The notes beneath the pieces are model-generated. The model was given only the letters and a program-made list of their open reading frames with translations. It was not told the origin of the DNA and did no database searches. A program made the translations under genes and the position numbers. DNA of 24,521 nucleotides, from NCBI GenBank assembly GCA_031375525.1, contig JANMHY010000529.1:1-24521 (forward strand), given 5' to 3'. The first letter of the stretch is position 1; every line of letters begins with the position of its first letter. The stretch is from Burkholderiales bacterium (lineage in GTDB: Bacteria; Pseudomonadota; Gammaproteobacteria; Burkholderiales; Burkholderiaceae_C). Positions 1 to 20,754 of this stretch are shown here, piece after piece.

Positions 1-386
1 GCGCCGACGAGCGCGCCTTCGCCGATGCTCACACCGCAGAGCACGGTGGCGTTGGAGCCGATCGAGGCGCGCCGCTTGACTCGCGTCGGCTCCACGGCCC
101 AATCGGCCTCGGTCTGCAGGCTGCCGTCGACGTTGGCCGCCTGCGGGTAGCGGTCGTTGATGAACATCACGCCGTGGCCGATGAAGACTTCGTCGTCGAT
201 CACCACACCTTCGCAGACGAAGCTGTGCGATGAAATCTTGCAACGCGCCCCGATGCGTGCGTTTTTCTGGATCTCAACGAAGGAGCCGACCTTGGTGTCG
301 TCACCGATGCGGCAGCCGTAGAGGTTGACCAAGGAAGGTTGGAAAATCCTGACATTGCTGCCCAGCTGTACATCGGTCACCGGCAT
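1..386 (-). CDS. Hexapeptide-repeat (left-handed beta-helix) N-acetyl/acyltransferase, WbpD/WlbB/WxcM-like; 3' end runs off the window
   Basis: Not in the ORF track; translated by hand from ATG at 386: MPVTDVQLGSNVRIFQPSLVNLYGCRIGDDTKVGSFVEIQKNARIGARCKISSHSFVCEGVVIDDEVFIGHGVMFINDRYP...IGSNATVLCGVSIGEGALVG. Repeating [LIV]G-x4 hexapeptides; GAAGGG SD-like sequence upstream. Confidence 0.9.
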   Translation of the reverse strand, partial: MPVTDVQLGSNVRIFQPSLVNLYGCRIGDDTKVGSFVEIQKNARIGARCKISSHSFVCEGVVIDDEVFIGHGVMFINDRYPQAANVDGSLQTEADWAVEPTRVKRRASIGSNATVLCGVSIGEGALVG

Positions 387-576
387 ACCAGCCCTTCGTC
401 ATAAAGTTGTTCACAATGGATGGCGTCAAACGCCGCCCGCATGGGTTTGAAGTGTCGGTGGCGCGCCTCGAGCCGACCTATCCCTAATCTCAGGCGTTGT
501 TTGCCCGCGTTTACCCCCTGTTTGCGGGTGCAGACGCACCTCTAGTCTTCTTAGACTGCCCCTCAGGTTCTGTGGC

Positions 577-1830
577 GTGGTCAAGGCGAAGGCGATGGGC
601 CCCATGAAGGTAACGACGAAGTACGCAAGCATCGAGGGCGCTGCCTCAGTGGCGGCGCTGCCGCGCAGCGCTGCACTGCATGCCGTCGATGTGGCAGAGG
701 GCATGGAGCACAGCGGCGCGGTGTCCGCGGCGCCATCGATCGTTCATCCGCAAAGCTGGCATGCGCCGCCCGCCGACAACGACGCACACCCAGACGGTCT
801 GCTGTCGCGCGCCGAGTTCCTGCGCATGGTGCAACGCGAGAAGCGCCGCACCGACCGCTCGCATTCGGCACTGTCGCTGGCGGTGCTGCTCGTCGATCCG
901 AACGGCGGCTGCACCTTGCCGCAAGTGCTGGAACAGGTCTCGTCAATGGTGCGCGAGACAGACTACGTCACCGCCACCGACGACCAGTGCATCGCAGTCT
1001 TGCTGCCCGATACCGGCGAGGCCGGCCTGCGCAGCTTTCTCGACAAGGTGGCGCTGAGCCGCGATGCGCAAGGCACCCGCGCTGCGGGCGCAACGTACCC
1101 GGACACCTCGTTCGATCGGCTGATCGCCGAGCGGCTCGGCACGCCTCGCTCACGCCACGCGGCCGATGCCGACGAGCCTTCGCCGCTGCGCTCCCATGGC
1201 TACCGCGGCAAACGCGCCCTGGACATCCTCGGTGCACTGGTGGCATTGGTCCTGCTGTCGCCGCTGATGCTGGTCGTCGCGCTGCTGATACGGCTCTCGT
1301 CGCCCGGACCGGCGATTTTTCGCCAGACGCGGGTCGGCCAGGGCGGTGCGCCGTTCACCATGTTCAAGTTCCGCTCGATGCGCACGGACATCGATGACAG
1401 CGCCCACCGTGAATTCGTCGCCAGCCTGATCGACGGCAAAGTGCAGCCGTCAGGCGGCAGCACGACCGCAGGCTCGTTCAAGATCAAGGGCGATCCGCGC
1501 GTCACGGCCATCGGCCGCTTCATCCGCAAGACCAGCATCGACGAGCTGCCGCAGTTCTACAACGTGCTCAAGGGCGACATGAGCTTGGTCGGCCCGCGCC
1601 CGCCGGTGCAGTACGAAGCAGACAAGTACAAGGCCTGGCACCGTCGGCGCGTCTTCGAGATGAAACCCGGCCTGACAGGCATCTGGCAGGTCGAAGGGCG
1701 CAGCCGGGTGTCGTTCGACGACATGGTGCGCATGGACCTGCGCTACCTGCAGCACTGCTCGCTGGGCTTCGACCTGGGCATCTTGCTGCGGACAGTCGCC
1801 GTCGTGCTGACCTGCGAAGGCGCGCAGTAG
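577..1830 (+). CDS. Priming (initiating) polyprenyl-phosphate sugar-phosphate transferase (Bac_transf; WbaP/WcaJ C-terminal type) with N-terminal degenerate GGDEF-like domain
   Basis: C-terminal half has KRALDILGALVALVLLSPLMLVVALLIR (single TM), FxMFKFRSM, DPRVTAIGRFIRKTSIDELPQFYNVLKGDMSLVGPRP, KPGLTGIWQV. Start uncertain (577 GTG, or ATG at 595, 604 or 703). Confidence 0.93.
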   Translation: MVKAKAMGPMKVTTKYASIEGAASVAALPRSAALHAVDVAEGMEHSGAVSAAPSIVHPQSWHAPPADNDAHPDGLLSRAEFLRMVQREKRRTDRSHSALSLAVLLVDPNGGCTLPQVLEQVSSMVRETDYVTATDDQCIAVLLPDTGEAGLRSFLDKVALSRDAQGTRAAGATYPDTSFDRLIAERLGTPRSRHAADADEPSPLRSHGYRGKRALDILGALVALVLLSPLMLVVALLIRLSSPGPAIFRQTRVGQGGAPFTMFKFRSMRTDIDDSAHREFVASLIDGKVQPSGGSTTAGSFKIKGDPRVTAIGRFIRKTSIDELPQFYNVLKGDMSLVGPRPPVQYEADKYKAWHRRRVFEMKPGLTGIWQVEGRSRVSFDDMVRMDLRYLQHCSLGFDLGILLRTVAVVLTCEGAQ

Positions 1831-1896
1831 CGCCCGGCGGGCACCCAGCGGCAGCGCAGTGGCGCGCGAACCATCTGAACCCAGGGAGAACATTGA

Positions 1897-2877
1897 ATGC
1901 ACATCGACGGCACGCGCATCCTCGTCACCGGCGGCTGCGGCCTTATCGGCTCGACGACGATCGATCTGCTGCTGCGCGAGCACCGGCCAGAAAAGATCGT
2001 CATCCTGGACAACCTGGCGCGCGGCAGCCTGGCCAATGTCGAAGCGGCGCTGAAGGACCCGCGTGTCAGCCTCGCCCGTGGCGATGTCCGTGATGCGGAC
2101 GCCGTGCGCCGCGCCACCGAGGGCATGGACGCCGTGATCCACATGGCCGCGCTGCGCATCACGGCGTGCGCCGCCGACCCGCGCGAGGCGATGCAGGTGA
2201 TGTGCGACGGCAGCTTCAACGTCGTCGATGCGGCGCACCACGCCGGGGTGAAGAAGCTCGTGGCCGCGTCGTCGGCATCGATCTATGGCCTGGCCGATCA
2301 GTTCCCGACGCGCGAGGATCACCATCCCTACAACAACCGCACGTGGTACGGCGCCAGCAAAATCATGCTCGAGGGCCTGCTGCGCTCGTACCACTCGATG
2401 TACGCCCTGCCCTACGTGGCCCTGCGCTACTTCAACGTCTATGGCCCGCGCATGGACATCCACGGCAAGTACACCGAAGTGCTGATCCGCTGGATGGAGC
2501 GCATCGCCACCGGGCAGGCGCCGCTGATCTTCGGCGACGGCGAGCAGACGATGGACTTCATCTACATCGACGACATCGCGCGCGCCAACGTGCTGGCTTT
2601 GCAGAGCGAGCAGACCGACGAAGTGTTCAACGTGGCCAGCGGGACCGAGACTTCTTTGAATCAACTCGCCGCCGCGCTGGCCAAGGTCATGGGTTCCGAT
2701 CTGTCACCCGTGTACGGCCCGGAGCGCAGCATCAACCCCGTACCGCGGCGCCTGGCCAGCACCGAGAAAGCGGAACGGCTGCTCGGCTTCAGAGCAGGCG
2801 CCGACCTGGAACAGGGGCTGCGCCGCTTGGTTAAGTGGTGGCAGGAAAGCCGCGAATCGACGATGGTCCACGCATGA
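1897..2877 (+). CDS. NAD-dependent nucleotide-sugar epimerase/dehydratase (extended SDR)
   Basis: GGCGLIG Rossmann motif, SSASIYG, YGASK (YxxxK), LRYFNVYGP; AGGGAG SD upstream. Confidence 0.93.
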   Translation: MHIDGTRILVTGGCGLIGSTTIDLLLREHRPEKIVILDNLARGSLANVEAALKDPRVSLARGDVRDADAVRRATEGMDAVIHMAALRITACAADPREAMQVMCDGSFNVVDAAHHAGVKKLVAASSASIYGLADQFPTREDHHPYNNRTWYGASKIMLEGLLRSYHSMYALPYVALRYFNVYGPRMDIHGKYTEVLIRWMERIATGQAPLIFGDGEQTMDFIYIDDIARANVLALQSEQTDEVFNVASGTETSLNQLAAALAKVMGSDLSPVYGPERSINPVPRRLASTEKAERLLGFRAGADLEQGLRRLVKWWQESRESTMVHA

Positions 2878-4028
2878 TCCCGATCGCCAAGCCCGTGATG
2901 GGCGAACCCGAAGCCGAAGCGGCGCGGCGCGTCATCCTGAGCGGTTGGATCACGCAGGGGCCGGAAGTCGCCGCCTTCGAACGCGAGTTCGCCGAGCTCG
3001 TTGGTGCCGAGCATGCCTGCGCCGTTTCCAACTGCACGACCGCGCTGCACTTGGCTCTCATGGTGGCCGGCGTGCAGGCCGGTGACGAAGTCATCACCGT
3101 CAGCCACTCCTACATCGCCACCGCCAACAGCATTCGCTATTGCGGCGCGACGCCAGTGTTCGTCGATATCGATCCGGTCACGTTCAACATGGATGTGTCG
3201 CTCGTCGAGGCCGCCATCACGCCGCGAACGAAAGCCATCCTTTGCGTGCATCAGATGGGCATGCCCTGCGACCTCCAGCGCCTGGTGCCGCTCGCAAAGC
3301 GCCACGGCATCCCGTTGATCGAGGACGCGGCCTGCGCTATCGGCAGCGAGATCCTCTGGCAAGACCGCTGGGAGCGCATCGGTGCCCCGCACGGCGACGT
3401 GGCCTGCTTCTCCTTCCACCCGCGCAAAGTCATCAGCACCGGCGACGGCGGCATGATCACCACGCGCCACGCCGACTGGGACAAGCAGTTCCGGCTGCTG
3501 CGCCAGCATGCGATGAGCGTGCCGGACACGGTGCGTCACGGCGCGGCGCAGGTGATCTTCGAGCAGTACGAAAGCGTGGGCTACAACTACCGCATGACCG
3601 ACATCCAGGCGGCGGTGGGGCGCGAGCAGTTGAAGCGGTTGCCGGAGACGGTGCGCCGTCGTCGCCTGCTGGCTCGACGTTATCGGGAGCTTCTCTCGTC
3701 GTTGGAAGGCATCGTGCTTCCGCTCGAACCATCGTACGGGCGTACCAATTGGCAGAGCTATTGCATTCGACTGCATGCGGCGGCCAAGCAATCCCTGCTG
3801 ATGCAGTCGATGCTCGACGCAGGTGTCAGCACGCGGCGCGGCATCATGTGCAGCCATCGCGAGCCGGCGCATGCGTCACAGGCGCAGCCGTTCGGGCTCG
3901 AGCACTCTGAACAGGCACAGGATCGTTGTGTGCTGCTGCCGCTGTATGTGCAGATGTCCGACGACGATCAAATACGCGTGGTGGACGCGCTGCACGACGC
4001 GCTGGTGGCCATGGAAGTCAGGGCGTAG
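2874..4028 (+). CDS. DegT/DnrJ/EryC1/StrS-family PLP-dependent nucleotide-sugar aminotransferase
   Basis: MIPIAKP start overlapping the previous stop (ATGA 2874-2877); GPEVAAFEREFA, SNCTTALHL, IEDAACAIG, SFHPRK (PLP lysine), GDGGMI, GYNYRMTDIQAAVG. Confidence 0.95.
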   Translation: MIPIAKPVMGEPEAEAARRVILSGWITQGPEVAAFEREFAELVGAEHACAVSNCTTALHLALMVAGVQAGDEVITVSHSYIATANSIRYCGATPVFVDIDPVTFNMDVSLVEAAITPRTKAILCVHQMGMPCDLQRLVPLAKRHGIPLIEDAACAIGSEILWQDRWERIGAPHGDVACFSFHPRKVISTGDGGMITTRHADWDKQFRLLRQHAMSVPDTVRHGAAQVIFEQYESVGYNYRMTDIQAAVGREQLKRLPETVRRRRLLARRYRELLSSLEGIVLPLEPSYGRTNWQSYCIRLHAAAKQSLLMQSMLDAGVSTRRGIMCSHREPAHASQAQPFGLEHSEQAQDRCVLLPLYVQMSDDDQIRVVDALHDALVAMEVRA

Positions 4029-5579
4029 ATGACCGCGGTGTCGCCCACGCCGACGCAGGTCGTGCCGCGCGCAGAGACTTCGACCTCCGCTCAGATCCTG
4101 CGAGCGTCGGCGCTGATTGGCGGCGCCACGGCATTGAACGTTCTCATCGGACTGGTGAAAACAAAAGCGTTGGCGATTCTGCTCGGTCCGGCTGGTGTGG
4201 GTTTGCTCGGCATCCTCGCGTCGGTATCCGATCTTGCCCGCAGCATCGCCCAACTGGGCATCCATGGCAGCGGCGTGCGGCAGATTGCCGAAGCCGTCGG
4301 CACGCAAGACTCGAACCGCATCGCTCGCACCATCATCGTGTTGCGTCGAACCGCCCTGGTCCTCGGCCTCGTCGGCATGCTGACGTTGGTCGCGATGGCC
4401 AAGGCTGCCTCGATGTGGGCGTTCGGCGACGCTGCGCATGCGACGTCGATTGCCTGGGTGTCGATCGCCGTCTTCTTCAGGCTCGTGGCCGACGGGCAGG
4501 CCGCATTGCTTCAAGGCATGAGGCGGGTGGGCGACCTGGCACGCGTCGGCGTGGTCGGCGCGTTGGCAGGCGCGGTCGCCAGCGTCGTCTTGGCGGCGTG
4601 GTTGGGCGAAGCGGGCATCGTGCCGGGAGTCGTTGCCTCGGCAGCGCTGGCCGCATTGGTCTCTTGGCGTGTCGCCCGACGAGTGCGTGTCGAGCCGGTG
4701 CACTTGAGCGTTTCACAGGTCTGCGAAGAGGCGGGCACGCTGCTCAAGCTGGGCCTGGCGTTCCTGGCCAGCGCGGCCATGATGGCCGGCGCAGCGTTTG
4801 CTGTTCGTGCGATGGTGCTGCGACAAGGCGGCATGGAGGAGGCGGGGCTCTATCAGGCCGCCTGGACGCTCGGCGGCATGTACGTCGGCTTCGTCCTGCA
4901 AGCGATGGGAACCGACTTCTATCCGCGACTCGTGGGCGTCAGCGGGAACCCGTCGGCGTCCAATCGCATGGTCAACGAGCAGGCCCAGATCAGCCTGCTG
5001 CTTGCAGGGCCTGGCGTGATCGGCACGATGGTGCTGGCGCAGCAAGTAGTGACCATCTTCTACAGCGCCGCATTTGCCGAAGCCGGCCCTGTGCTGCGCT
5101 GGATCTGCCTGGGCATGGCGCTGCGCGTGATCTCGTGGCCGCTCGGCTACATCGTGCTGGCGCTCAACCGACGCATGATCTTTTTCGGCGCCGAGTTGGC
5201 CTGGACGGTTGTCAACGTCTCACTGTCCTGGTTGTGCGTCCACAAGTTTGGCCTGGCGGGCGCCGGATTCGCGTTCTTCGCCTCTTACGTCTTTCATTGC
5301 TTGCTGGTGTACGCGATCGCGAAGCGTCTGCAAGACTTCTCCTGGGATGCGGCCACCCGCAATCAGATCGTCTGGTTCGTCGCCAGCACTGCTATTGCCT
5401 TCCTGGCCTTTCTGACGCTGGGCAACAGCTGGGCGACGACCGCCATCGGTGCGGTCGTCCTGTGCATCAGCACGGCCCACAGCCTCAACGCGCTGGCGCG
5501 CTTGGCTCCCGACATGGTGCCTGCACGTCTGGGACGCGTTGTCGAACTGGCGCGACGGACGAGGGAGCGACTGCCTTGA
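4029..5579 (+). CDS. wzx: Wzx flippase / O-antigen translocase (WzxE-like)
   Basis: 516 aa with many hydrophobic segments; LLGPAGVGLLG N-terminal motif; ATG abuts the previous TAG; position in a polysaccharide operon. Confidence 0.85.
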   Translation: MTAVSPTPTQVVPRAETSTSAQILRASALIGGATALNVLIGLVKTKALAILLGPAGVGLLGILASVSDLARSIAQLGIHGSGVRQIAEAVGTQDSNRIARTIIVLRRTALVLGLVGMLTLVAMAKAASMWAFGDAAHATSIAWVSIAVFFRLVADGQAALLQGMRRVGDLARVGVVGALAGAVASVVLAAWLGEAGIVPGVVASAALAALVSWRVARRVRVEPVHLSVSQVCEEAGTLLKLGLAFLASAAMMAGAAFAVRAMVLRQGGMEEAGLYQAAWTLGGMYVGFVLQAMGTDFYPRLVGVSGNPSASNRMVNEQAQISLLLAGPGVIGTMVLAQQVVTIFYSAAFAEAGPVLRWICLGMALRVISWPLGYIVLALNRRMIFFGAELAWTVVNVSLSWLCVHKFGLAGAGFAFFASYVFHCLLVYAIAKRLQDFSWDAATRNQIVWFVASTAIAFLAFLTLGNSWATTAIGAVVLCISTAHSLNALARLAPDMVPARLGRVVELARRTRERLP

Positions 5580-6658
5580 ACCAACTTGACGGACCCGTGT
5601 GGATCGACATCGACAACACGCCGCACGTGCCGTTCTTTGTGCCGATCATCGGACGCTTGCGTTCGCGCGGGCATAGCGTTGTCGTGACAGCGCGCGATGC
5701 CTACGGTGTGCGGGATTTGCTTGCGCTGCACCTTGTGGACTGCCAGGTGGTGGGCCGGCACTTGGGGAAGAACAGGCTGCTCAAGGTGGCCGGAACCTTG
5801 GCGCGCAGCGCGCAACTGTTTCTTCGGCTGCGCCGCTCGCGCCCCGCGCTCGCTGTCTCGCACGGTTCGCGTGCGCAAATGCTGGCGGCGAGGGCGCTCG
5901 GCGTGCCGAGCATGGTCATCGCCGACTATGAGCACGTGACCCACCTGATGCGCGCCGATTACACCCTGGTGCCGGATGTGATGCCGCGCGACGTCGCCGC
6001 GCGCCTGTCGCGTAATGTCATCACCTACCCGGGTATCAAGGAGGACGTCTACGCCTGCGCCTTCGCACCGGACCCGCACTTCACCGCCGGTGTCATCGGA
6101 CTGGACACGACGCGCGTGATCGTGACGATCCGCCCCCCGGCGACCGAGGCGCATTACCACAACGCCGACAGCGACGAGCTGTTCGCGGCGGTGATCGAAA
6201 AGGTCGCCGCCGATCCCGCGTCGCAAGCGGTGCTGTTGCCGCGCAGCAAGGTGCAGCGTGAGGATGTCGAGCGTCGGTATGCGCACCTCGTCGCAACGCA
6301 GAAGATCCTGATTCCTGCTAAGGCCGTCGGCGGGTTGGACCTGATCTGGCACTCGGATGTGGTCATCAGCGGCGGCGGGACCATGAACCGCGAGGCCGCG
6401 GCGCTGGGCGTGCCGGTCTTCAGCATTTTCCGCGGACGCATCGGCGCGGTCGACCGCAGTCTGGCTGCCCAGGGTCGGCTGACGTTGTGCGAGTCCGCGG
6501 CTGACGTGCACAACATCCCGTTGGTCAGGCGCACGCGGCTGGTCAAGCCGGGCCATGCGGCGTCTTCACCGGCTCTGGACGCCATCGTTTTGCAAGTGGA
6601 ATCATTGAAGGCCGCGGCGTTTGCGACGGTCAACCCTTTGCCGGAGCCACGGGTATGA
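5576..6658 (+). CDS. DUF354-family protein (predicted GT-B fold)
   Basis: 3' part of the 3926..6658 ORF; TTG start overlapping the wzx stop (TTGA), alternative GTG at 5597. VWIDIDNTPHVPFF, VVVTARD and DVVISGGGTMNREAAALGVP match DUF354 as recalled. Confidence 0.8.
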   Translation: MNQLDGPVWIDIDNTPHVPFFVPIIGRLRSRGHSVVVTARDAYGVRDLLALHLVDCQVVGRHLGKNRLLKVAGTLARSAQLFLRLRRSRPALAVSHGSRAQMLAARALGVPSMVIADYEHVTHLMRADYTLVPDVMPRDVAARLSRNVITYPGIKEDVYACAFAPDPHFTAGVIGLDTTRVIVTIRPPATEAHYHNADSDELFAAVIEKVAADPASQAVLLPRSKVQREDVERRYAHLVATQKILIPAKAVGGLDLIWHSDVVISGGGTMNREAAALGVPVFSIFRGRIGAVDRSLAAQGRLTLCESAADVHNIPLVRRTRLVKPGHAASSPALDAIVLQVESLKAAAFATVNPLPEPRV

Positions 6659-7764
6659 AGTCGGCAATCAAGCTCCTGGTCGTAGCGGGCGCGCGTCCGA
6701 ACTTCGTCAAGATCGCACCGCTCTTGCGACATATCGACCAGCGGCTGCGCCAATGCACGATGCCCGTCGTGGAGTATCGGCTCGTGCACACGGGTCAGCA
6801 CTACGACCCCATGCTTTCCGATGTCTTCTTCAGCGAGATGGGTATTCCGGCACCTCACTTCAGTCTCGGCGTCGGGTCCCACTCCCAGGCCGTCCAGACA
6901 GCGCGGGTGATGGAGGCTTTCGAGCCAGTGTGCCTGCAGGAGCGACCGGATTGGGTGGTTGTGGTGGGAGACGTGAACTCCACGCTGGCCTGCGCGCTGG
7001 TGGCCACCAAGCTGGGAATCCGCGTTGCGCACGTGGAGGCCGGCCTGCGCAGTTTCGACCGGACCATGCCGGAGGAGATCAACCGCATCGTCACCGACTC
7101 GATCGCCGATTTGCTGCTGACGCCGTCCGACGACGGCGACGAGAACCTGCTGCGCGAGGGTGTGGCGCCGCACCGCATCCGCCAGGTGGGCAACATCATG
7201 ATCGATGCACTCGTGGCCAACCTCGAGCAGTCGCGGCGCAGCACCATCCTCGATCGACTGCAGGTTACGCCGAAAGGCTACGCCTGGGTCACGCTGCACC
7301 GCCCTGCCAACGTTGACCACGGCGACGTCTTGCGCACGATCGCGGAGTCGCTGTACGACGTCGCAGCGCGCATCCCGGTCGTGTTTGCCGTGCATCCCCG
7401 CACGGCACAGCGCGTACGAAGCTTCGGCGTCCCGTGCAAGACGGGCGCAGGCGTGCATTGGATCGAACCGGTCGGCTACCACGACTCGTTGCGCCTGACT
7501 GAGTCGGCCGCCTTCGTGCTCACCGATTCGGGAGGACTGCAGGAGGAGAGCACGTTCTTCCGCACCCCATGCCTGACGCTGCGGCCCAACACCGAGCGGC
7601 CGATCACGGTGACCATGGGCAGCAACCGACTGACGACGGCCGAGCGTCTGCCGGACGATGTTGCGCATGCCCTGGCCCACAAGAACGGCTTGGGTCGGGT
7701 GCCGCCCTTGTGGGATGGCCATGCCGCGCCGCGCATCGTGGATGCGATCTCGCAACAGGCATGA
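6655..7764 (+). CDS. wecB: UDP-N-acetylglucosamine 2-epimerase (non-hydrolysing), WecB/WbpI family
   Basis: VAGARPNFVKIAP, HTGQHYD, VGDVNST, HVEAGLRSFDRTMPEEINR, TLHRPANVD, TDSGGLQEE; ATGA overlap with the previous gene. Confidence 0.94.
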   Translation: MKSAIKLLVVAGARPNFVKIAPLLRHIDQRLRQCTMPVVEYRLVHTGQHYDPMLSDVFFSEMGIPAPHFSLGVGSHSQAVQTARVMEAFEPVCLQERPDWVVVVGDVNSTLACALVATKLGIRVAHVEAGLRSFDRTMPEEINRIVTDSIADLLLTPSDDGDENLLREGVAPHRIRQVGNIMIDALVANLEQSRRSTILDRLQVTPKGYAWVTLHRPANVDHGDVLRTIAESLYDVAARIPVVFAVHPRTAQRVRSFGVPCKTGAGVHWIEPVGYHDSLRLTESAAFVLTDSGGLQEESTFFRTPCLTLRPNTERPITVTMGSNRLTTAERLPDDVAHALAHKNGLGRVPPLWDGHAAPRIVDAISQQA

Positions 7765-8657
7765 GGCTGACCGTGGATCCCGGCTTCATCATCGTCACCG
7801 CAGCACACAACGAAGCGGCGTTCATCGAAAATACGTGTCGATCGATCGTTGCGCAGCGTGTGCGTCCGAGCAAGTGGATCGTCGTCGATGATGCGTCCCA
7901 GGACGGAACCGCGGCGATCGTTGCGAGCTATCGCGAACTGTGCCCGCAGATGATCGAACTGCTGCATCTCCAACGCCCGGCTGGGCGCGACTTCGGCAAC
8001 AAGGCGCGCGCCTTCGCTGTCGGCCTTGAACGTGCCCGCCGCCTTGGCTACCGCTTCATCGGCAACCTCGATGCCGACATCTCGCTGCCTGAGCACTACT
8101 ACGCGCGCATGCTCGACGAGTTCTCTGGCGACACGCGCTTGGGCATCGTCGGCGGGATGGTGGCGTCCTTCATTGGAGGCAAGTTCGTGAGACAGGAGGT
8201 GGCGCTCGACAGCGTTGCAGGCGCAGTGCAACTGTTCCGCAGCGCCTGCTTCGACGACGTCGGCGGCTATGTTGCATTGCCGCTGGGGGGCATCGACGCT
8301 GCTGCGGAGATCAAGGCGCGCATGCAAGGCTGGCGCGTACGGACTTTGCCCGACGTTCAGGTGCTCGAGCACCGGCGTACCGGCAGCGCCACCAGCAACC
8401 CCTTGCGCGCTCGCCTGCGCGAAGGGCGCCGCCTCTACTCGCTTGGCTATGCACCATCGTTCTTCGCCGCGCGCTGTTTACGGCGTGCGGTCGAGCATCC
8501 CAAAGTACTTGGCAGTCTGGCCGCGCTGGCAGGTTATGCCTGGGAGGCGGCGCGGGGCGGACCCCGGGCCTTGCCGCCGCAGGTGATCGACTATCTGCGC
8601 TCCGAACAACGAGCCAAGCTGTCGCGGCTCCTGCGGCGGACGGCCGCCTCGCGCTGA
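7761..8657 (+). CDS. Glycosyltransferase family 2
   Basis: ATGA overlap at 7761-7764; IIVTAAHNEAAFI, WIVVDDASQD, NLDADI (DxD), VAGAVQLFR..F..VGGY. Confidence 0.9.
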   Translation: MRLTVDPGFIIVTAAHNEAAFIENTCRSIVAQRVRPSKWIVVDDASQDGTAAIVASYRELCPQMIELLHLQRPAGRDFGNKARAFAVGLERARRLGYRFIGNLDADISLPEHYYARMLDEFSGDTRLGIVGGMVASFIGGKFVRQEVALDSVAGAVQLFRSACFDDVGGYVALPLGGIDAAAEIKARMQGWRVRTLPDVQVLEHRRTGSATSNPLRARLREGRRLYSLGYAPSFFAARCLRRAVEHPKVLGSLAALAGYAWEAARGGPRALPPQVIDYLRSEQRAKLSRLLRRTAASR

Positions 8658-8668
8658 AGGCCACGACG

Positions 8669-10564
8669 ATGTGCGGCATTGCTGGCGTCTACGATCGTTC
8701 CGGTCTGTTCGTGGACCAGGCGCTCGTCGAGCGCATGACGAGCGCGCTGGCCCATCGTGGCCCGGACGGTTCCGGCTTTCTGTTCCGCCGCCACGCCGGG
8801 CTCGGCCACCGGCGACTCAGCATCATCGACGTGGACGGCGGTGCACAACCGATGGCCAACGAGGACGACTGTGTTCACGTCGTCTTCAACGGCGAGATCT
8901 ACAACTTTGTCGAATTGCGCAACGAGCTTCGCGCTGCCGGCCATCACTTCAAGACCGCATCCGACACGGAGGTGCTGGTTCATGCCTACGAACAGTGGGG
9001 CGAGTATTTCATGCGCCGCCTCAACGGCATCTTCGCTTTCGCACTGTTCGACGAGCGCAAGGACCTCGTCTTGGTGGCACGAGATCACTTGGGTGTCAAA
9101 CCGCTGTACTACGCCTGGTCCGGATCGAAGTTGCTGTTTGCCTCGGAGATCAAGGCGTTGATGACCCACGCCGATCTGACTATCGATGTTGATCCGCGAG
9201 CCCTGGCAAACCTTTTCACGTACCGGTACGTGCCGTCGCCGGAGACATTGATCCAGGGTATCGCCAAGCTGCCTCCCGGCCACTTCATGCGCGTAGATCG
9301 ATCCGGGGCCAGAGTCGATCGCTATTGGTCACATGTGCCGCAGCCTCGAACCACCCTTGGCCAGGAAGAACTCGTCGAACAGTACCAATCGTTGGTTGAA
9401 GACGCGGTGCGTCTGCAGATGCGAAGCGACGTACCCGTCGGGCTCTTTCTCAGTTCGGGCGTCGATTCGGCCGCGCTGCTGGCGCTGATGGCGCCGCACG
9501 CAGCGGCGCCCGTGGACGCTTTCACCATCGACTTCGATGGCGCCGACAACACCAACGAAGCCGCCGATGCGGCCTTGATCGCCAAGCGCTACGGCGCCAG
9601 ACACCACGTCTTGCGCCTGACCAGCCAGGACTACGCGCGCTACTTCGATCGATACATGAACGATCTCGAAGAGCCCGTCGGGCATGAGGCGGCGCCTGCC
9701 TTTCACTTTCTGGCTCAGTTGGCCAGCGAGCACGTCAAGGTGGCGCTGAGCGGCCAAGGTGCGGACGAGCCGTGGGCAGGCTACGGCCGCTACGTGGGCG
9801 TGAAGCTGTCCGCGTTGTACAGCCGGCTGCCTGTGCGGGCCACACGCATGATGGCCGTTCTGGCGCGGAGCATGCCCTACGCTCCTGAGCGCTTTCGCCG
9901 CGGCGCACTGTCTCTCGGCGAGCGTGACCCGTTGACGCGCTTCGGCAAGATCTACTCGTTCTTCAGCGACGACATGAAGGCCGAGTTGTATCGCGACTGG
10001 CTGCGACAAGCACAGGCGGATCCTTCATCGCTGATGTCCGTCGAGCCGCTTCGCAAGTTGCACAACGACGTCAAGCACCTCGATCCGCTGTCTCAGATCC
10101 TGTACCTCGACACGCGCACCAATCTGCCCGACGACCTGTTGATGGTCGGCGACAAGACCTCGATGGCCAACTCGCTCGAGCTGCGGGTACCTTACTTGGA
10201 TCACCGCATCGTTGAGTTTGTCGAGAACCTGCCACCGCAACTCAAGCTGAGCGGATTCACCGGCAAGTACCTGCACAAGGTAGCGCTGTCGAAATGGCTG
10301 CCTCGCAATGAGGTCTATCGGCGCAAGAAAGGCTTTGCGAATCCGCTCGGGCAATGGCTGCGCACCTCGCTCGCTCCTTGGGTGGACGATCTGCTGCTCG
10401 CTCCGGACACCTGCATCGCCGCCTACTTCAACCAGGATTTCATGCGCAAGATCGTGATGCTCGATCGCACCGGCAGCGCCAACTACACGCGTCATGTGTA
10501 TCTCCTGCTGTCGCTGGAGATGTGGCACCGCAACTTCCTTCGCAAGCCGCGAGCAGCGGCGTGA
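8669..10564 (+). CDS. asnB: Asparagine synthase (glutamine-hydrolysing)-like amidotransferase, copy 1
   Basis: MCGIAG N-terminal nucleophile Cys, HRGPD, HRRLSIID, FNGEIYN, SDTEV, RDHLGVKPLYY, LSSGVDS, LSGQGADE, ELRVPYLD. Confidence 0.95.
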   Translation: MCGIAGVYDRSGLFVDQALVERMTSALAHRGPDGSGFLFRRHAGLGHRRLSIIDVDGGAQPMANEDDCVHVVFNGEIYNFVELRNELRAAGHHFKTASDTEVLVHAYEQWGEYFMRRLNGIFAFALFDERKDLVLVARDHLGVKPLYYAWSGSKLLFASEIKALMTHADLTIDVDPRALANLFTYRYVPSPETLIQGIAKLPPGHFMRVDRSGARVDRYWSHVPQPRTTLGQEELVEQYQSLVEDAVRLQMRSDVPVGLFLSSGVDSAALLALMAPHAAAPVDAFTIDFDGADNTNEAADAALIAKRYGARHHVLRLTSQDYARYFDRYMNDLEEPVGHEAAPAFHFLAQLASEHVKVALSGQGADEPWAGYGRYVGVKLSALYSRLPVRATRMMAVLARSMPYAPERFRRGALSLGERDPLTRFGKIYSFFSDDMKAELYRDWLRQAQADPSSLMSVEPLRKLHNDVKHLDPLSQILYLDTRTNLPDDLLMVGDKTSMANSLELRVPYLDHRIVEFVENLPPQLKLSGFTGKYLHKVALSKWLPRNEVYRRKKGFANPLGQWLRTSLAPWVDDLLLAPDTCIAAYFNQDFMRKIVMLDRTGSANYTRHVYLLLSLEMWHRNFLRKPRAAA

Positions 10565-11535
10565 TGCTCATGGACGTCTCGATCATCATCGTCAACTGGA
10601 ACTCCAAGCAGTATCTGCCCGCCTGCATCGAGTCCATCTGCCGACACACGACGAAGGTGGCTTACGAGATCATCGTTGTCGACTCCGGTTCGTTCGACGG
10701 CTGCGGCGAACTGCTGTCTCGGCAGTTCTCGGATGTTCGCTTCATCCAGTGCAAGACCAATGTCGGCTTCGCAGCCGCCAACAACCTTGCGGTGGACCTA
10801 GCGCGCGCGGACTGTCTGCTGTTCCTGAATCCGGACACAGAACTGACTTCGCCCGCCGTTGATCGGCTGTTCGAGCATCTGGCCGAGCATCCGAAGGTCG
10901 GCGCTGTCGGCTGCAAGCTGTTCAACCGTGACGGGTCCGTGCAAACCAGCTGCGTTCAGCCCTTTCCGACGATCATCAATCAACTGTTGAACATCGAGGT
11001 CCTGCGCCAACGCCTTCCCCATTGGCGTGTCTGGGGAACGGCATCGCTGTTGGGGACGGCACAGGCTGCAGTTCCAGCCCAAGTGGTTTCAGGGGCCTGT
11101 CTGATGGTCCAGCGGTCCGCGTTCGAGCATGTTGGGCGCTTCAGCGAAGAGTACTTCATGTACGCCGAGGATCTGGACCTCTGTCACAAGCTGCACAAGG
11201 CGGGCTACGCGAATTGCTGCCTGCCAAACGTTACCGCACGGCACTTCGGAGGCGGCTCCAGTGAACAAGCTCCGAGTGCCTTCTCATCCGTGATGATGCG
11301 AGAGTCTATTTGGCGATTCCTGCAAAACAGCCGCGGCTTGGCTTACGGGGCCGCGTACCGGCTGTCGGTGCTCGTCGCGGCGTTGCTTCGCATCGGGTTG
11401 CTCGGGCTGCTGGTCGTGGTGGACCTCATCGGCCGCCGCAGAGACGGCGTTGCGCTGCGTCTTCGTTCTTTGGGCAAGTGGCGGGCGATCCTTGCATGGT
11501 CGCTGCGGATCAAAACGGCGGTGCGTCCCGCGTGA
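10564..11535 (+). CDS. Glycosyltransferase family 2 (WbbL/rhamnosyltransferase-like)
   Basis: TGATG overlap (alternative ATG 10570); IIIVNWNS, VVDSGSFD, NVGFAAANN, FLNPD, VSGACLMV, FMYAEDLDLC. Confidence 0.92.
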   Translation: MLMDVSIIIVNWNSKQYLPACIESICRHTTKVAYEIIVVDSGSFDGCGELLSRQFSDVRFIQCKTNVGFAAANNLAVDLARADCLLFLNPDTELTSPAVDRLFEHLAEHPKVGAVGCKLFNRDGSVQTSCVQPFPTIINQLLNIEVLRQRLPHWRVWGTASLLGTAQAAVPAQVVSGACLMVQRSAFEHVGRFSEEYFMYAEDLDLCHKLHKAGYANCCLPNVTARHFGGGSSEQAPSAFSSVMMRESIWRFLQNSRGLAYGAAYRLSVLVAALLRIGLLGLLVVVDLIGRRRDGVALRLRSLGKWRAILAWSLRIKTAVRPA

Positions 11536-11574
11536 CAGCCAGAGCAACAGCAAAAGCGAACGGAACAAAAAGTC

Positions 11575-13581
11575 ATGTGCGGTATTGCCGGTCAGCTAAT
11601 GCACGACATCGAGGCGCCGGCCGACGCCGCCCTGGTTGGCCGGATGAGCGCAGCCATCGCACACCGGGGCCCGGATGGATTTGGTCATCACATGCAGGGT
11701 CCTGTGGCCCTCGGCCATCGGCGCTTGGCGATCATCGACGTGGACTCCGGTGCGCAGCCGATGTGCAACGAGGACGGCTCGGTCTGGATCACCTTCAACG
11801 GTGAAATCTACAACTACGCCGAACTGCGGCTCGACCTGATCAAGCGAGGCCACGTTTTCCGCACGAAGTCCGACACAGAAGTCATCGTGCACCTGTATGA
11901 GGAGCACGGTTCCGATTGCGTCACCCATCTCAAGGGCATGTTCGCCTTCGCGATCTGGGATCAACGAGAGGCAAAGCTGTTCTTGGCGCGTGACCGCGTG
12001 GGCATCAAGCCCCTGTACTACGCCGTCACCAAAAGCTCCTTCCTCTTCGCATCCGAGATCAAGAGCCTGCTCCAGGACCCTGGCCTCGTTAGGCGCATCA
12101 ACCCAAAGACGATCGACCGCGCGCTCACCTACTACTACGCCCCTGGCACCGAGACGCTCCTCGAGGGTGTGTTGAAGCTCGAGCCCGGCCATTGGATGAC
12201 GGTGCAGGGCGGACGCGTCAAACGCCATCAGTATTGGGATCTCGATTTCAGCGCCGGCCGCTGGGACCGCTTCGAAGATGCCGTCGGCGCCCTGCAGAGC
12301 CTCCTGCACCGGGTGGTCGGCGAGCACATGGTCAGCGACGTGCCGGTTGGCGTGCTGCTCAGCGGCGGTGTCGATTCGACCGCCATGCTGCGCTTCGCCG
12401 CGGCACATGCGTCGAGCCCCGTCAACACGTTCACCGTCGGCTTCGACGGCGTCGGCGCCACTGACGAGCGGCCGTACGCGCGTCTGGCGGCTCAGGCCTT
12501 CGGAGCGCGCCATCACGAGATCACCTTTGGGGCCAAGGAGTTTGCCCGTGCTCTGCCGCTGTATGCATGGCACATGGAAGAGCCGGTGTGCGAGCCGCCC
12601 GCGATTGCGCTGTATGAGGTGGCCCGGCTCGCCAGTCGCAGCGTCAAGGTCCTTTTGTCGGGCGAAGGGGGCGACGAAGCCTTTGGCGGCTACAACAAAT
12701 ACGGCTACCTTCTCGCCCTCGAATCGGCCAAGTCTGCCCTCGGGCGCGGCACGGGGGCGTTGCGCTTGGCGATGCAGCTGGGGTCGAAATTGGGCTTGCG
12801 CAAGCTCGACAACTTCATCCCGCTGGTGCGCCAGCCGCTGTCGGCTCACTACTTGAGTTGCGCGTCGTCCCCGCACACCCTGTTCAACCGCAGCAAGGCC
12901 GCTCTTTACCGCGATGACTTCGCGCGTTCGCTGGGTGCGGTTCAGTCCGACGAGCCAACGCGCCGCGTGTTCCGACACAGCACTCACCTTCCTGCGCTGC
13001 ATCAGATGCTGCGTGTCGATACCAAGACATGGTTGCCGGACGACCTGTTGGTGAAGGCCGACAAGATGACCATGGCCGCGTCCGTGGAGTTGCGCGTTCC
13101 CCTCCTCGACTCGGATGTTCTCGAGTTCGCTGCACAGCTGCCGGCCCACTTCAAGGTCCGCGGCTGGCCGCCCAAGCGCATCCTTCGCGCTGCTGTTCGC
13201 GACTCGGTCCCCAGCCCCATCCTCAAGCGCAAGAAGGTGGGCTTTCCCGTGCCCTACGAGCACTGGCTTGGCCACGAACTTAAAGAGCTCGTCAACGACA
13301 CGCTGCTGGATCCACAGGCAGGCGTGCGCGACTTCTTCAGCGGCCAAGCTCTGCAGGCCCTGACCTCGGCTCAGCAGCGGGGCGATGGCGGTTCCCAGGA
13401 AGTCTTTGGGCTGCTGGTGCTGGAGCTGCTGCATCGTCAGTTCGTCCGTGGATCCACCGATGGCATGGTCGACGACGGCCCACAACGACTCGCTTCAGCT
13501 GCGGGCGGCGCGCCAGTGCGGTGCGAGCGCCTCGAAACCGGGGGCGCTAACGTGTCGTTGCGCCCCAGCTACCCCGCATGA
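11575..13581 (+). CDS. asnB: Asparagine synthase (glutamine-hydrolysing)-like amidotransferase, copy 2
   Basis: MCGIAG, HRGPD, HRRLAIID, FNGEIYN, SDTEV, RDRVGIKPLYY, LSGGVDS, LSGEGGDE, ELRVPLLD; about 40 aa of low-complexity C-terminal tail. Confidence 0.95.
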   Translation: MCGIAGQLMHDIEAPADAALVGRMSAAIAHRGPDGFGHHMQGPVALGHRRLAIIDVDSGAQPMCNEDGSVWITFNGEIYNYAELRLDLIKRGHVFRTKSDTEVIVHLYEEHGSDCVTHLKGMFAFAIWDQREAKLFLARDRVGIKPLYYAVTKSSFLFASEIKSLLQDPGLVRRINPKTIDRALTYYYAPGTETLLEGVLKLEPGHWMTVQGGRVKRHQYWDLDFSAGRWDRFEDAVGALQSLLHRVVGEHMVSDVPVGVLLSGGVDSTAMLRFAAAHASSPVNTFTVGFDGVGATDERPYARLAAQAFGARHHEITFGAKEFARALPLYAWHMEEPVCEPPAIALYEVARLASRSVKVLLSGEGGDEAFGGYNKYGYLLALESAKSALGRGTGALRLAMQLGSKLGLRKLDNFIPLVRQPLSAHYLSCASSPHTLFNRSKAALYRDDFARSLGAVQSDEPTRRVFRHSTHLPALHQMLRVDTKTWLPDDLLVKADKMTMAASVELRVPLLDSDVLEFAAQLPAHFKVRGWPPKRILRAAVRDSVPSPILKRKKVGFPVPYEHWLGHELKELVNDTLLDPQAGVRDFFSGQALQALTSAQQRGDGGSQEVFGLLVLELLHRQFVRGSTDGMVDDGPQRLASAAGGAPVRCERLETGGANVSLRPSYPA

Positions 13582-13588
13582 AGCGCCA

Positions 13589-14626
13589 ATGAACCAAGTC
13601 GAAATCCTCCCTCAGCAAGCCCCTCTGGCCAGTCCATCGAGGCCGCACTTCGAGTGCCGCATCTGCGGCAATGCCGATGACAACCGGCCGTACGAAGCAC
13701 CAGAGTTGATGTACGGCTTTCGCGACGTCCACTTGTACTTCCAGTGCGCACACTGTCAGTGCCTGCAGATTGCGCAGTTTCCGCCCGACATCGAGCGCTA
13801 CTACGGCGGCAAGTACTACTCGTACCAGTCGCGCTCCTCGACGGCGCTGAAAAGCGCTCTGATTCGCTCGCGAGATGCGTATGCGATGTTCGGTGCGGGA
13901 TGGATCGGCGCCGGGCTTTGCCGGGCGTTTCCCACAGATGAGTACGACTTCCTGCAACCGCTGCGTTCGACATTGTCGAAGGACCACCGCATTCTCGACG
14001 TTGGCTGTGGCGCCGGCGCTCTCCTGCGGGCGATGCGTCGCGTCGGCTTTGGCCGGCTGGACGGCATCGACCCCTTCGGCAGCGAGGACGGCGTCATCGA
14101 GCCGGGTCTGACCATTCGCAAGACGTTCATTCACGATCTGCACGGGACCTACGACTTGGTGATGTTTCATCACTCGCTCGAGCACGTGCCGGACCAGTTG
14201 GCCACGCTGCAAAGCGCCTTTCGCCTGCTGGCGCCGGGCGGCCAGTGCGTGGTGCGCATTCCCACCGTGTCTTCGTATGCATGGCGGCAATATGGGATCC
14301 ATTGGGTGCAACTCGATGCGCCGAGGCACTACTTCCTGCACTCCAGGCAAAGCATGAGCCTCATCGCAGCGCAAGCCGGGTTTGAAGTGGCCAGCGTCGT
14401 ATGCGACGGCACTGCGTTCCAGTTTTGGGGCAGCGAGCAGTACGCCAGCGGCATCGCGCTGAGGGACAGGCGCTCCTACTGGGTCAACCCCCGCGCCTCG
14501 ATGTTCTCCAAAGCAGACATGGCTCAGTTCACGGAGCGAGCGAAAGCGGCAAACGCTGCCGGCGAGGGCGACCAGTGCGCCTTTTACCTTCGCAAGCCCC
14601 CACTCCAACGGTCGCCAACGCCATGA
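13589..14626 (+). CDS. Class I SAM-dependent methyltransferase with N-terminal Cys-pair (putative Zn-binding) region
   Basis: ATG 13589, 7 nt after the asnB2 stop; CRICG and CAHCQC, ILDVGCGAG motif I, GIDP, YDLVMFHHSLEHV, APRH. Confidence 0.88.
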   Translation: MNQVEILPQQAPLASPSRPHFECRICGNADDNRPYEAPELMYGFRDVHLYFQCAHCQCLQIAQFPPDIERYYGGKYYSYQSRSSTALKSALIRSRDAYAMFGAGWIGAGLCRAFPTDEYDFLQPLRSTLSKDHRILDVGCGAGALLRAMRRVGFGRLDGIDPFGSEDGVIEPGLTIRKTFIHDLHGTYDLVMFHHSLEHVPDQLATLQSAFRLLAPGGQCVVRIPTVSSYAWRQYGIHWVQLDAPRHYFLHSRQSMSLIAAQAGFEVASVVCDGTAFQFWGSEQYASGIALRDRRSYWVNPRASMFSKADMAQFTERAKAANAAGEGDQCAFYLRKPPLQRSPTP

Positions 14627-15831
14627 AGGTGCTGGTTTACGCGCACCGGCTCGAGTGGGGTGGCAGCCAGGTCAATGCCATCGAACTCAGTTCATTGCTT
14701 TCGTTGCAGCATGGTCATGACGTCGTGCTCGTCGCTACGCCCGGGCCGATGCTCGAATTTGCGATCGAGAAGAAGCTGCGCTTCATTGCCGTTCCGGACG
14801 CCCGCACGCATCCCTCGCTCGGTCGAATGAAGGGCCTTCGGGCGGCCGTGCTGCGCGAGCGGCCCGACGTAGTGCATGTGTGGGACTGGTGGCAGTGTCT
14901 GGACGCCTACTTCGCAGTGCACCTGCCGATGCAAATGCCGCTGCTGGTATCGGACATGACGATGACGGTGAGTCGATTTCTGCCGACAACGCTCTTGACG
15001 ACATTCGGTACACCAGAGTTGGTAGAACGCGCCAGATCGGCGGGCCGCAAACGCGTCGATCTCTTGGTTCCGCCCGTGGATGTGATTTTCAACGCACCCG
15101 GCGCGGTGGACCCACTGCCGTTCCGCAAGCAATACGCGCCGGGTGCCGACGAGGTGCTGCTGGTGACGGTATCTCGCCTGGTCAAGGCGATGAAGTCGGA
15201 GAGCCTGTTCCGCACCATCGACGCGGTCGAACGCCTGGGCACCCGGTTGCCGCTGCGCTTCGTCATCGTCGGCGATGGAGATGCACGATCCGATCTTCAG
15301 ATCGCCGCCGAGAGGACCAACCAACGCCTCGGGCGCGAGGCGGTCGTGCTGGCCGGACCGCTGATCGACCCAAGACCGGCTTACGCAGCGGCCGACATCG
15401 TGGTGGGCATGGGCGGATCGGCGCTGCGAGGGATGGCCTTCGGCAAGCCGGTCGTCGTCGTCGGGGAACAGGGTTTCGCAGAACCGTTCGATGCCACCAC
15501 GATGCAGCGATTTCACTACACCGGCCTCTACGGCACTGGAATCGGGCAGACAGACAACGCCGCACTGGCCGGGTACATCGCGGCATGGGCAACCGACCCC
15601 GAAGCCAGAGCCCAAGTCGGTGCGCAGTCTCGCCAGTTCGTTGTCGAACGATTTTCCTTGCAGGCAGTGGGCCGGACGCTGGACGCGTTGCTGCGTTCAG
15701 CGGCGGCACGCAGGCCAGCATTACCCGCAGCCCTGTTGGATGCATGCCGCACGGCAGCATTTCTCTGGGGGCGGCAACTTGTCCCGCGCGATATTCGCCG
15801 CCTCTTTACGCGTGGCGGCCGTGTGACTTGA
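14623..15831 (+). CDS. GT-B fold glycosyltransferase, family 4-like (atypical C-terminal motif)
   Basis: ATGA overlap; MKVLVY...GGSQ...ATPGPM, RPDVVHVW, FVIVGDG, YAAADIVVG...AFGKPVVV. Confidence 0.82.
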   Translation: MKVLVYAHRLEWGGSQVNAIELSSLLSLQHGHDVVLVATPGPMLEFAIEKKLRFIAVPDARTHPSLGRMKGLRAAVLRERPDVVHVWDWWQCLDAYFAVHLPMQMPLLVSDMTMTVSRFLPTTLLTTFGTPELVERARSAGRKRVDLLVPPVDVIFNAPGAVDPLPFRKQYAPGADEVLLVTVSRLVKAMKSESLFRTIDAVERLGTRLPLRFVIVGDGDARSDLQIAAERTNQRLGREAVVLAGPLIDPRPAYAAADIVVGMGGSALRGMAFGKPVVVVGEQGFAEPFDATTMQRFHYTGLYGTGIGQTDNAALAGYIAAWATDPEARAQVGAQSRQFVVERFSLQAVGRTLDALLRSAAARRPALPAALLDACRTAAFLWGRQLVPRDIRRLFTRGGRVT

Positions 15832-15873
15832 GCGCAAACCAATGAGAAACAACGATCACACAGGCCACCGGAC

Positions 15874-16869
15874 ATGACCAATCCAGGACAGGTTACGCTG
15901 ATCATGTGCGTTTACAACGCGGGCAAGTATTTCGGACCTGCGGTGGACAGCCTGCTTGCGCAGACGTATCGCGACTTGCAAATCATCATCGTGGACGATG
16001 GCAGCACCGACGGCTGCACGTCAATCCTGAAAGACTTGTCCGACCCACGCATCGTCGTCCTGCGGCACGAAAACAGAGGACGGTCGGCGTCCCTGAACCG
16101 AGCCTTGTCGATCGCTACGGGCGAGTTTTACACCGTGCAGGACGCGGACGACCTGAGCCACCCATCGCGAATCGCACGCCAGGTCGAATGCATGCGTCTG
16201 TACCCCGACACAGCAGCCGCCTTCAGCGGACACGAAGTGATCATCAACGGGCGACACTTGGCACCACGCTTGGCCGAGAAGGACTCGCAGACCTGCCGAA
16301 CCGACATCGACCTGCTGCGCATGCCGGGGCACGATGCGACGGCAATGTATCGGATGTCGATGGTCAAGGGCATGCAGTACGACGAGACCCTGCCGTTCAT
16401 CGAAGCCTATGACTACGTGATCCGGGTGGGCGAGCAGCACAACATGCGAGTTATCGGCGAGTGTTTGTACTCGTACCGCGTGCACTGGAGTTCGATCACT
16501 CACCGCGATCCGGCGGCGCGGTGTCACAAGGTTCGAGAGTGCACGGCCAAAATCCTGCAGCGCCGCGGGCTGCGAGCCCATCCAACGCTGCTGCCACCGT
16601 TGCCGGAGCCGGGTCGGGCTTCCAACCGAGAACGCGACAACGACCTGGTTTCGCACTTCATGGAAAGCGTGGTCGATTTATGCCATGCCGGGCGCCGCGC
16701 CGAGGCGCTTCGAGCGGCCGCAACGTGCGCTCGCTTGCACCCGCTGGACCCCTACTACTACAAGCCGGCTCTGTACGCAGTGGCACCGACCTCGGCTGTC
16801 GCCTGGTACCGCTCACGGCGGACCTCTCGGGCCATTGCGCTGAACGCTCGTCCAGAGCCTCAGCGGTGA
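15874..16869 (+). CDS. Glycosyltransferase family 2
   Basis: VTLIMCVYNAGKY, LLAQTY, IIVDDGSTD, NRGRSASLN, QDADD. Confidence 0.92.
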   Translation: MTNPGQVTLIMCVYNAGKYFGPAVDSLLAQTYRDLQIIIVDDGSTDGCTSILKDLSDPRIVVLRHENRGRSASLNRALSIATGEFYTVQDADDLSHPSRIARQVECMRLYPDTAAAFSGHEVIINGRHLAPRLAEKDSQTCRTDIDLLRMPGHDATAMYRMSMVKGMQYDETLPFIEAYDYVIRVGEQHNMRVIGECLYSYRVHWSSITHRDPAARCHKVRECTAKILQRRGLRAHPTLLPPLPEPGRASNRERDNDLVSHFMESVVDLCHAGRRAEALRAAATCARLHPLDPYYYKPALYAVAPTSAVAWYRSRRTSRAIALNARPEPQR

Positions 16870-18176: not shown

Positions 18177-18202
18177 GAATCGAACCGAGTGAGATCTGCC
18201 AA

Positions 18203-18231
18203 AGAATGACTCGATTCGGATTGAGTTGCAA
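18203..18231 (-). promoter_or_regulatory. Candidate sigma70 promoter for the Wzy-like gene
   Basis: Minus strand TTGCAA-N17-CATTCT, located between the terminator and the inferred GTG start; the gene needs its own promoter if the terminator is efficient. Confidence 0.35.
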
Positions 18232-18264
18232 GGGTTCGATGGCGCATCCGCCCCCCACACATAA

Positions 18265-18298
18265 GCGAAGGCCCGCCCCTTGCGGGGCGGGCCTTCGC
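18265..18298 (-). terminator. Intrinsic terminator hairpin after the beta-helix gene
   Basis: Perfect 15-bp stem gcgaaggcccgcccc/ggggcgggccttcgc with a GCAA (GNRA) loop on the minus strand, followed by TTATGTGT; 27 nt past the stop at 18326. Confidence 0.8.
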
Positions 18299-18325
18299 AT
18301 TTGGCCGATGACAGCCGGGCCGCTA

Positions 18326-19645: not shown

Positions 19646-19685
19646 GGTGGGCTCTCGAAAACTCTGTTGAAACAGTGGCGGCGGA

Positions 19686-20720: not shown

Positions 20721-20754
20721 TGTTGGGTTCCCAATCGACGTTCGATCTCTGGTC

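Follow-up and report, generated by a model that had tools for sequence, protein, structure and literature searches.

We analysed a 24,521-nucleotide stretch of DNA from a Burkholderiales bacterium (GenBank assembly GCA_031375525.1, contig JANMHY010000529.1), referred to below as the window. The assembly is fragmented, at 1035 contigs and 82% completeness, and the window covers this contig from end to end. Its forward strand carries, at 577..1830, a single open frame of 417 codons from GTG 577, which joins a shortened, catalytically dead GGDEF domain to a phosphoglycosyl transferase domain and stands at the head of a Wzx/Wzy-type polysaccharide cluster. An earlier note on this DNA had read the N-terminal domain as a degenerate GGDEF domain with an intact inhibitory site (I-site) of the RxxD type, and had suggested that cyclic di-GMP (c-di-GMP) gates the first step of polysaccharide synthesis. 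The peptide quoted there, the RETD motif at 952..963 and the DDQCI motif at 979..993 all match the sequence of this frame. The features described below point to a putative c-di-GMP receptor built into a priming enzyme.

Residues are numbered throughout from GTG 577. The true start is probably ATG 604, or ATG 595, since more distant homologues begin MKVTTK. An N-terminal leader (residues 1-72, 577..792) is predicted to be disordered, with predicted local distance difference test (pLDDT) values of 31-36 in a model of the full-length protein. It is followed by the dead GGDEF domain (residues 73-187, 793..1137), of which 793..1104 encodes residues 73-176. A flexible linker (residues 188-211, 1138..1209) then joins this domain to a likely membrane helix; its length is about 20 residues, and the low-confidence stretch in the full-length model (pLDDT below 50) spans residues 189-205. 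The phosphoglycosyl transferase catalytic domain occupies residues 212-411 (1210..1809). The leader, though predicted to be disordered, has short motifs that are kept across homologues, namely MKVTTKYAS at the probable true start, ALHA and WHAPxADND, and it may serve as a docking peptide.

The N-terminal domain is a GGDEF homologue, and it is the evidence at the level of the family that is decisive. The signal from the single sequence is weak: the Pfam GGDEF_2 model is matched with an E-value of 0.087 and the WspR GGDEF domain with an E-value of 0.23, and by itself the window's own sequence falls below the Pfam GGDEF cut-offs. A profile built from 119 excised and aligned N-terminal domains of the family matches GGDEF domains in the PDB with E-values from 1.4e-12 to 1e-5. 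These include GcbC, 3IGN, a Geobacter GGDEF domain, WspR, DgcR, SiaD, DosC and PleD. Among the 119 domains, 42 match PF00990, 13 match GGDEF_2 and 8 match PelD_GGDEF, and a word-indexed search found hundreds of full-length homologues, a few of which carry a precomputed PF00990 assignment beside PF02397.

Structure prediction places the domain in the same superfamily, as the earlier note had anticipated. An AlphaFold2 model of residues 69-190, built on the 119-domain alignment, has a pLDDT of 92.2 and a predicted template modelling score (pTM) of 0.86, and the full-length model agrees with it for residues 73-187. The 50 best PDB matches of the domain model in Foldseek are all GGDEF domains, with a probability of 1.00 and template modelling scores of 0.59-0.78. 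VIA-align gives Z-scores of 11.1-14.7 against GGDEF structures over 110-120 aligned residues. The predicted secondary structure runs from a helix (residues 78-95) through a strand (99-106), a second helix (114-124), a hairpin (130-134 and 138-144), a third helix (148-160) and a further strand (167-174) to a last helix (177-187). The top structural match is PDB 6khu from Thermotoga maritima (131 residues, Z 14.7), an unusually short domain labelled 'DGC', for diguanylate cyclase, which could represent this truncated form of GGDEF among the solved structures.

Both parts of the active site that define a diguanylate cyclase are lost. At the GGDEF position, residues 135-139 read DDQCI (979..993), and alignments across the family show that the motif is degenerate there too. 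In a set of 126 representative domains, taken from clusters at 50% identity and used for the counts below (some positions could be scored over 125 or 123), GG[DE]EF is kept only once, and the protein in question is probably an ordinary receiver-GGDEF cyclase caught at the edge of the search. The loop that binds guanosine triphosphate (GTP) and metal, with its Dx[LF]K..ND..GH..GD signature, is 7-8 residues shorter than in WspR, GcbC and 3IGN, has none of these residues and is not conserved. The domain also ends early, with about 118 residues aligning to solved GGDEF segments of about 145-150. The reading of this domain as an active cyclase is ruled out by the loss of both motif and loop, and the domain is predicted to be incapable of making c-di-GMP, as the earlier note had argued from the missing loop segment and from DDQCI.

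The I-site has fared differently from the active site. RETD (R126 to D129) aligns with the RxxD motifs of GcbC, 3IGN and the Geobacter GGDEF domain, and exactly five residues separate it from the degenerate motif at D135; this is the spacing that the earlier note had given and the one found in receptors of the PelD type. RxxD is present in 121 of the 126 domains, with the arginine and the aspartate each found in 122 of 125. Across 62 full-length homologues, the most distant at about 40% identity, R126, T128 and D129 do not vary, so the conservation of RxxD among proteins of the same architecture, on which the earlier proposal had hung, holds up well. A chance match to a four-letter motif is ruled out by this conservation together with the profile alignment. 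To our knowledge, every characterised RxxD I-site binds c-di-GMP.

The inhibitory site of PleD is made of four residues, the RxxD pair R359 and D362 and a further arginine, R390, of one domain and R313 of an adjacent domain, and each such site of a GGDEF dimer holds one intercalated c-di-GMP dimer (PMC7288161). The WspR counterparts are R242, D245 and, in trans, R198; the R242A and R198A variants each purify free of nucleotide (PMC2270323). Equivalents of the additional basic residues are present in the fusion protein, and alignment indicates that they too are conserved, which goes beyond what had been claimed before. The trans arginine corresponds to R94, which lies in a helix motif, REKRRTDRS (residues 87-95, 835..861), whose E88, R91 and R94 are near-invariant (122, 121 and 124 of 126 domains, respectively). 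R94 aligns residue by residue with WspR R198, the number 198 coming from a count back from R242 to the arginine of SLR. The third residue contributed by the same domain corresponds to K157 (1045..1047), at the position of PleD R390, where lysine or arginine is found in 89 of 123 domains (72%). In the alignment to PleD (2wb4), profile positions 47-105 pair with chain positions 345-403, two segments of equal length, and this puts profile residues R61, D64 and K92 on PleD 359, 362 and 390; the mapping is our own count rather than a printed alignment. K157 lies 11 residues past T146, just as PleD R390 lies 11 past T379. All four positions (R126, D129, K157 and R94) are in the right state in 86 of the 126 domains. 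A further motif, TYPD (residues 173-176, 1093..1104), lies on the last strand and is specific to this family, with T173, Y174 and P175 nearly invariant.

The conservation of the I-site residues while the active site decayed argues that selection has held the ligand site. A kept I-site beside a lost active site is the pattern of the known degenerate-GGDEF receptors.

The C-terminal half of the fusion passes the Bac_transf family model comfortably (PF02397, residues 212-411, 222.8 bits against a curated cut-off of 27, E-value 3.1e-66). Its closest solved structure is the catalytic domain of Salmonella WbaP (E-value 4e-47), followed by PglC (E-value 5e-31). The Asp-Glu pair D322-E323 (1540..1545) and the PRP motif P340-R341-P342 (1594..1602) are each invariant in the 62 homologues. 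The segments that surround them, DELPQ (which holds D322 and E323) and GPRP, as well as the KFRSM segment, align with WbaP and are likewise invariant, and on these grounds the transferase half looks functional. Residues 212-241 (1210..1299) form a long helix in the model and probably a re-entrant membrane helix, interrupted by a Ser-Pro break at S228-P229 (1258..1263), of which P229 is invariant. According to work on PglC, monotopic transferases are recognised by a re-entrant membrane helix with such a break, which leaves both ends of the helix on the cytoplasmic side. If the helix is re-entrant, the N-terminal domain is therefore cytoplasmic.

The NCBIfam models for exopolysaccharide, WcaJ and WbaP priming transferases are matched over only the last 200 or so model positions. 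TIGR03022, TIGR03023 and TIGR03025 give 284.6 (TIGR03025), 234.4 and 231.6 bits against cut-offs of 295.55, 410.75 and 403, and the protein thus lacks the large WbaP/WcaJ-type architecture. The scores fall short because the N-terminal two thirds of the models have no counterpart in the fusion. We assign the protein, by homology, as a monotopic phosphoglycosyl transferase, predicted to place the first sugar-phosphate onto undecaprenyl phosphate. The catalytic core is most like that of WbaP, a galactose-phosphate transferase, yet the neighbouring genes suggest a different first sugar. Assignment of the substrate by similarity to WbaP is unsafe, and the flanking epimerase, aminotransferase and acetyltransferase genes point to an amino sugar instead.

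The fusion belongs to a family that is widespread and uncharacterised. When residues 60-205 were searched exhaustively, 121 clusters at 50% identity were found, with members in Beta-, Alpha- and Gammaproteobacteria, Acidobacteriota, Planctomycetota and myxobacteria. Among the representatives the dead GGDEF domain almost always precedes Bac_transf, and many short entries are truncated metagenome fragments. Several members carry tandem copies of the domain before the transferase, three in P0099 and P0122 and two in P0124, P0104 and P0113, and nearly every copy retains RxTD and the equivalent of R94. Such multiplication agrees with a site that needs a second domain to be complete. In P0154, a metagenome representative of 532 residues, two copies are fused to a glycosyltransferase of the WecG/TagA/CpsF type; variants such as this one indicate that the module is portable among enzymes that build lipid-linked glycans.

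The nearest public relative, from an uncultured betaproteobacterium, is 89% identical. Defluviicoccus vanus Ben 114, whose genome is complete, encodes a homologue of 36% identity with RDID at the I-site. Within the genus, 5 of 24 other species genomes searched contain the full fusion, a patchy distribution that is usual for surface-polysaccharide loci. Databases annotate family members only as 'sugar transferase'. No published description of a fusion between GGDEF and phosphoglycosyl transferase domains was found in the literature searched, though the survey by O'Toole et al. (2021) might list it.

The surrounding genes agree with the earlier description of a Wzx/Wzy pathway. Upstream, a divergent gene for a hexapeptide-repeat acyltransferase (3..386, reverse strand; Pfam Hexapep, E-value 1.4e-17) runs off the end of the window. 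Downstream on the forward strand, Pfam identifies an NAD-dependent epimerase/dehydratase (1897..2877), a DegT-type aminotransferase (2835..4028) and a Wzx-type flippase (4029..5579). The rest of the polysaccharide cluster (5600..18674) encodes, by Pfam, a DUF354 protein, a UDP-GlcNAc 2-epimerase, several glycosyltransferases, two AsnB-type amidotransferases and a methyltransferase, and a UDP-glucose dehydrogenase lies further along. The cluster also includes a membrane protein resembling Wzy and O-antigen ligases (16863..18674, reverse strand), for which the Wzy_C match is weak and below the curated cut-off (E-value 6.5e-5). In D. vanus, the homologue lies amid the same acyltransferase, aminotransferase, epimerase-aminotransferase, flippase and family 2 glycosyltransferase (GT2) genes (L002 2847..9417). 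The acyltransferase, epimerase/dehydratase and DegT neighbours, here and in D. vanus, hint that the first sugar is an acetamido-amino sugar. The two AsnB-type glutamine amidotransferases are full-length and flank a GT2 gene (8669..10564 and 11575..13581), which suggests a polymer with amidated uronic acids. Also within the locus, on the reverse strand, are a protein with DUF4082 (E-value 1.3e-50) and fibronectin type III domains (19689..21137) and, adjoining it, a protein without a Pfam match (18329..19735). A promoter scan of 1..2000 found none.

Elsewhere, the genome has about 30 canonical GGDEF matches, which indicates that it uses c-di-GMP, a biofilm signal, and only one member of the dead GGDEF family.

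We consider that the dead GGDEF domain probably acts as a c-di-GMP receptor with a regulatory effect on priming, and we put the chance of this at roughly 55%. Candidate is the right strength for c-di-GMP-gated priming as a whole. In the mechanism that we envisage, c-di-GMP would bind to R126, D129 and K157 of the domain, probably as the intercalated dimer seen at I-sites, with the site made whole by R94 from another copy of the domain. A rise in c-di-GMP would thereby bring two enzyme molecules together (or, in those relatives with tandem copies, two domains of the array), and this pairing would alter the activity of the priming enzyme. The linker, flexible and about 20 residues long, favours control by pairing or tethering over a rigid allosteric contact. 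The direction of the effect is not decided by sequence; our guess, by analogy with other exopolysaccharide systems, is activation.

A more specific form of this proposal is tentative. An intercalated c-di-GMP dimer that bridges RxxD and K157 of one domain to R94 of another might assemble an active, paired core of the WbaP type. The domain could then be a built-in counterpart of the EpsW-EpsZ system and a portable module found also on WecG-type enzymes, with c-di-GMP acting directly on the first committed step of a Wzx/Wzy pathway, the one that consumes the lipid carrier. WbaP functions as a homodimer; for EpsZ, activation by the phosphorylated form of the response regulator EpsW has been proposed, through stabilisation of the EpsZ dimer (PMC12802240).

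Several observations weigh against a c-di-GMP receptor that works through pairing. Small monotopic transferases are reported to act as monomers (PMC12802240), and the output may therefore be something other than pairing, such as release of an occluding contact, partner recruitment or inhibition. In the full-length model, how the domains lie relative to each other is uncertain (pTM 0.51). Conservation extends beyond the I-site residues to T128 and the ExxRxxR helix, and part of it may be structural, while the position of K157 is basic in only 72% of domains. No diguanylate cyclase gene was found within the window. Searches for a c-di-GMP riboswitch or any other Rfam family were also negative, both across the whole window and in a permissive scan of 250..800.

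In a first alternative, the dead GGDEF domain would bind no ligand. It would then be a scaffold for pairing or docking, either with itself or with another protein, for instance the flippase, a glycosyltransferase or a working cyclase, and RxxD and the arginines would be kept for contacts or for folding. Degenerate GGDEF domains are known as protein-interaction modules, the flexible linker suits a tethered docking domain, and the conserved residues extend beyond the I-site to E88, R91, T128, T146, G150 and TYPD. The residues conserved at 97-99%, however, are those that contact c-di-GMP in PleD and WspR, and those of the active site have all been free to drift. A pure scaffold would not be expected to retain exactly these residues, and we regard it as unlikely, although it survives better than the other alternatives.

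A second alternative accepts the ligand and reverses its effect. Here c-di-GMP would bind and inhibit priming, with the cross-linked domains holding the enzyme inactive as they do at the I-sites of cyclases. The same four-residue site locks the domains of PleD and WspR in an inactive state (PMC7288161, PMC2270323), whereas c-di-GMP stimulates exopolysaccharide production in most of the systems that have been studied (PMC12802240), and inhibition seems doubtful to us. Least probable is that the I-site-like pocket binds some other nucleotide (a different cyclic dinucleotide, pGpG, GTP or (p)ppGpp), to which priming would then be coupled: the structural matches 9g85 and 9g86 are described in their entry titles as PleD with c-di-GMP and ppGpp or pppGpp, and the family-specific RxTD and TYPD motifs could mean an altered specificity, but the characterised RxxD I-sites known to us, such as those of PleD (PMC7288161) and WspR (PMC2270323), bind c-di-GMP, and the GTP-binding half of the domain is deleted.

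If the dead GGDEF domain is a c-di-GMP receptor, it is functionally closest to PelD and to the remaining degenerate-GGDEF I-site receptors that serve exopolysaccharide machines. PelD (from the Pel system of Pseudomonas aeruginosa), PopA, BcsE, Listeria PssE and Bacillus YdaK likewise have a dead GGDEF domain that keeps RxxD and is dedicated to an exopolysaccharide machine. The likeness is partly visible in our comparisons, in the 8 of 119 family domains that match the Pfam PelD_GGDEF model and in the structural match to BcsE in the c-di-GMP-saturated Bcs complex (9fnn, Z 11.1). Receptors of the PelD type are separate subunits, or occur with GAF or receiver partners, and serve synthase-dependent pathways, whereas the receptor considered here is fused to a priming transferase of the Wzx/Wzy type. 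The domain falls about 40 residues short of a full GGDEF domain. Its sequence and structure lie nearer product-inhibited cyclases, such as WspR and GcbC, and in sequence it is more distant from PelD, which is not among the PDB sequence matches. WspR and PleD share its fold (Z about 12) and the same four-residue I-site geometry, formed by RxxD, by a basic residue in the helix that follows and, in trans, by an arginine from the first helix. They differ in that the fusion has no GG[DE]EF, no GTP/metal loop and no product by which to be inhibited, and in that its output is a membrane sugar-phosphate transferase.

With WbaP, WcaJ and EpsZ the fusion shares the catalytic core, the Asp-Glu pair and the PRP motif. 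The four N-terminal membrane helices and the cytoplasmic domain of unknown function of WbaP are both replaced in the fusion by the shortened, probably cytoplasmic GGDEF domain. Published post-translational control at the priming step is represented by the EpsW-EpsZ pair of Myxococcus, proposed to act via dimer formation (PMC12802240). The putative regulator of the fusion differs in being built into the enzyme, and it would respond to c-di-GMP, not to phosphorylation. Those small monotopic transferases that carry fused regulatory domains have the same general plan, a monotopic core with an extra N-terminal domain, and O'Toole, Imperiali and Allen (PNAS 2021) are cited as listing regulatory-domain fusions that include receiver domains (PMC12802240). 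Dead GGDEF receptors are themselves known; what differs here is the output, a Wzx/Wzy-type priming transferase in one chain with the sensor.

Post-translational control by c-di-GMP is well worked out for the synthase-dependent cellulose, alginate, Pel and poly-N-acetylglucosamine systems. Wzx/Wzy pathways are unlike these, and their post-translational control by c-di-GMP has been described as poorly understood (PMC12802240). The priming enzyme is a logical switch point because it draws on the scarce undecaprenyl-phosphate pool, and a receptor fused to it offers a one-protein system in which to ask about c-di-GMP control directly. If the proposal is true, c-di-GMP would switch the assembly of an exported polysaccharide at its very first step.

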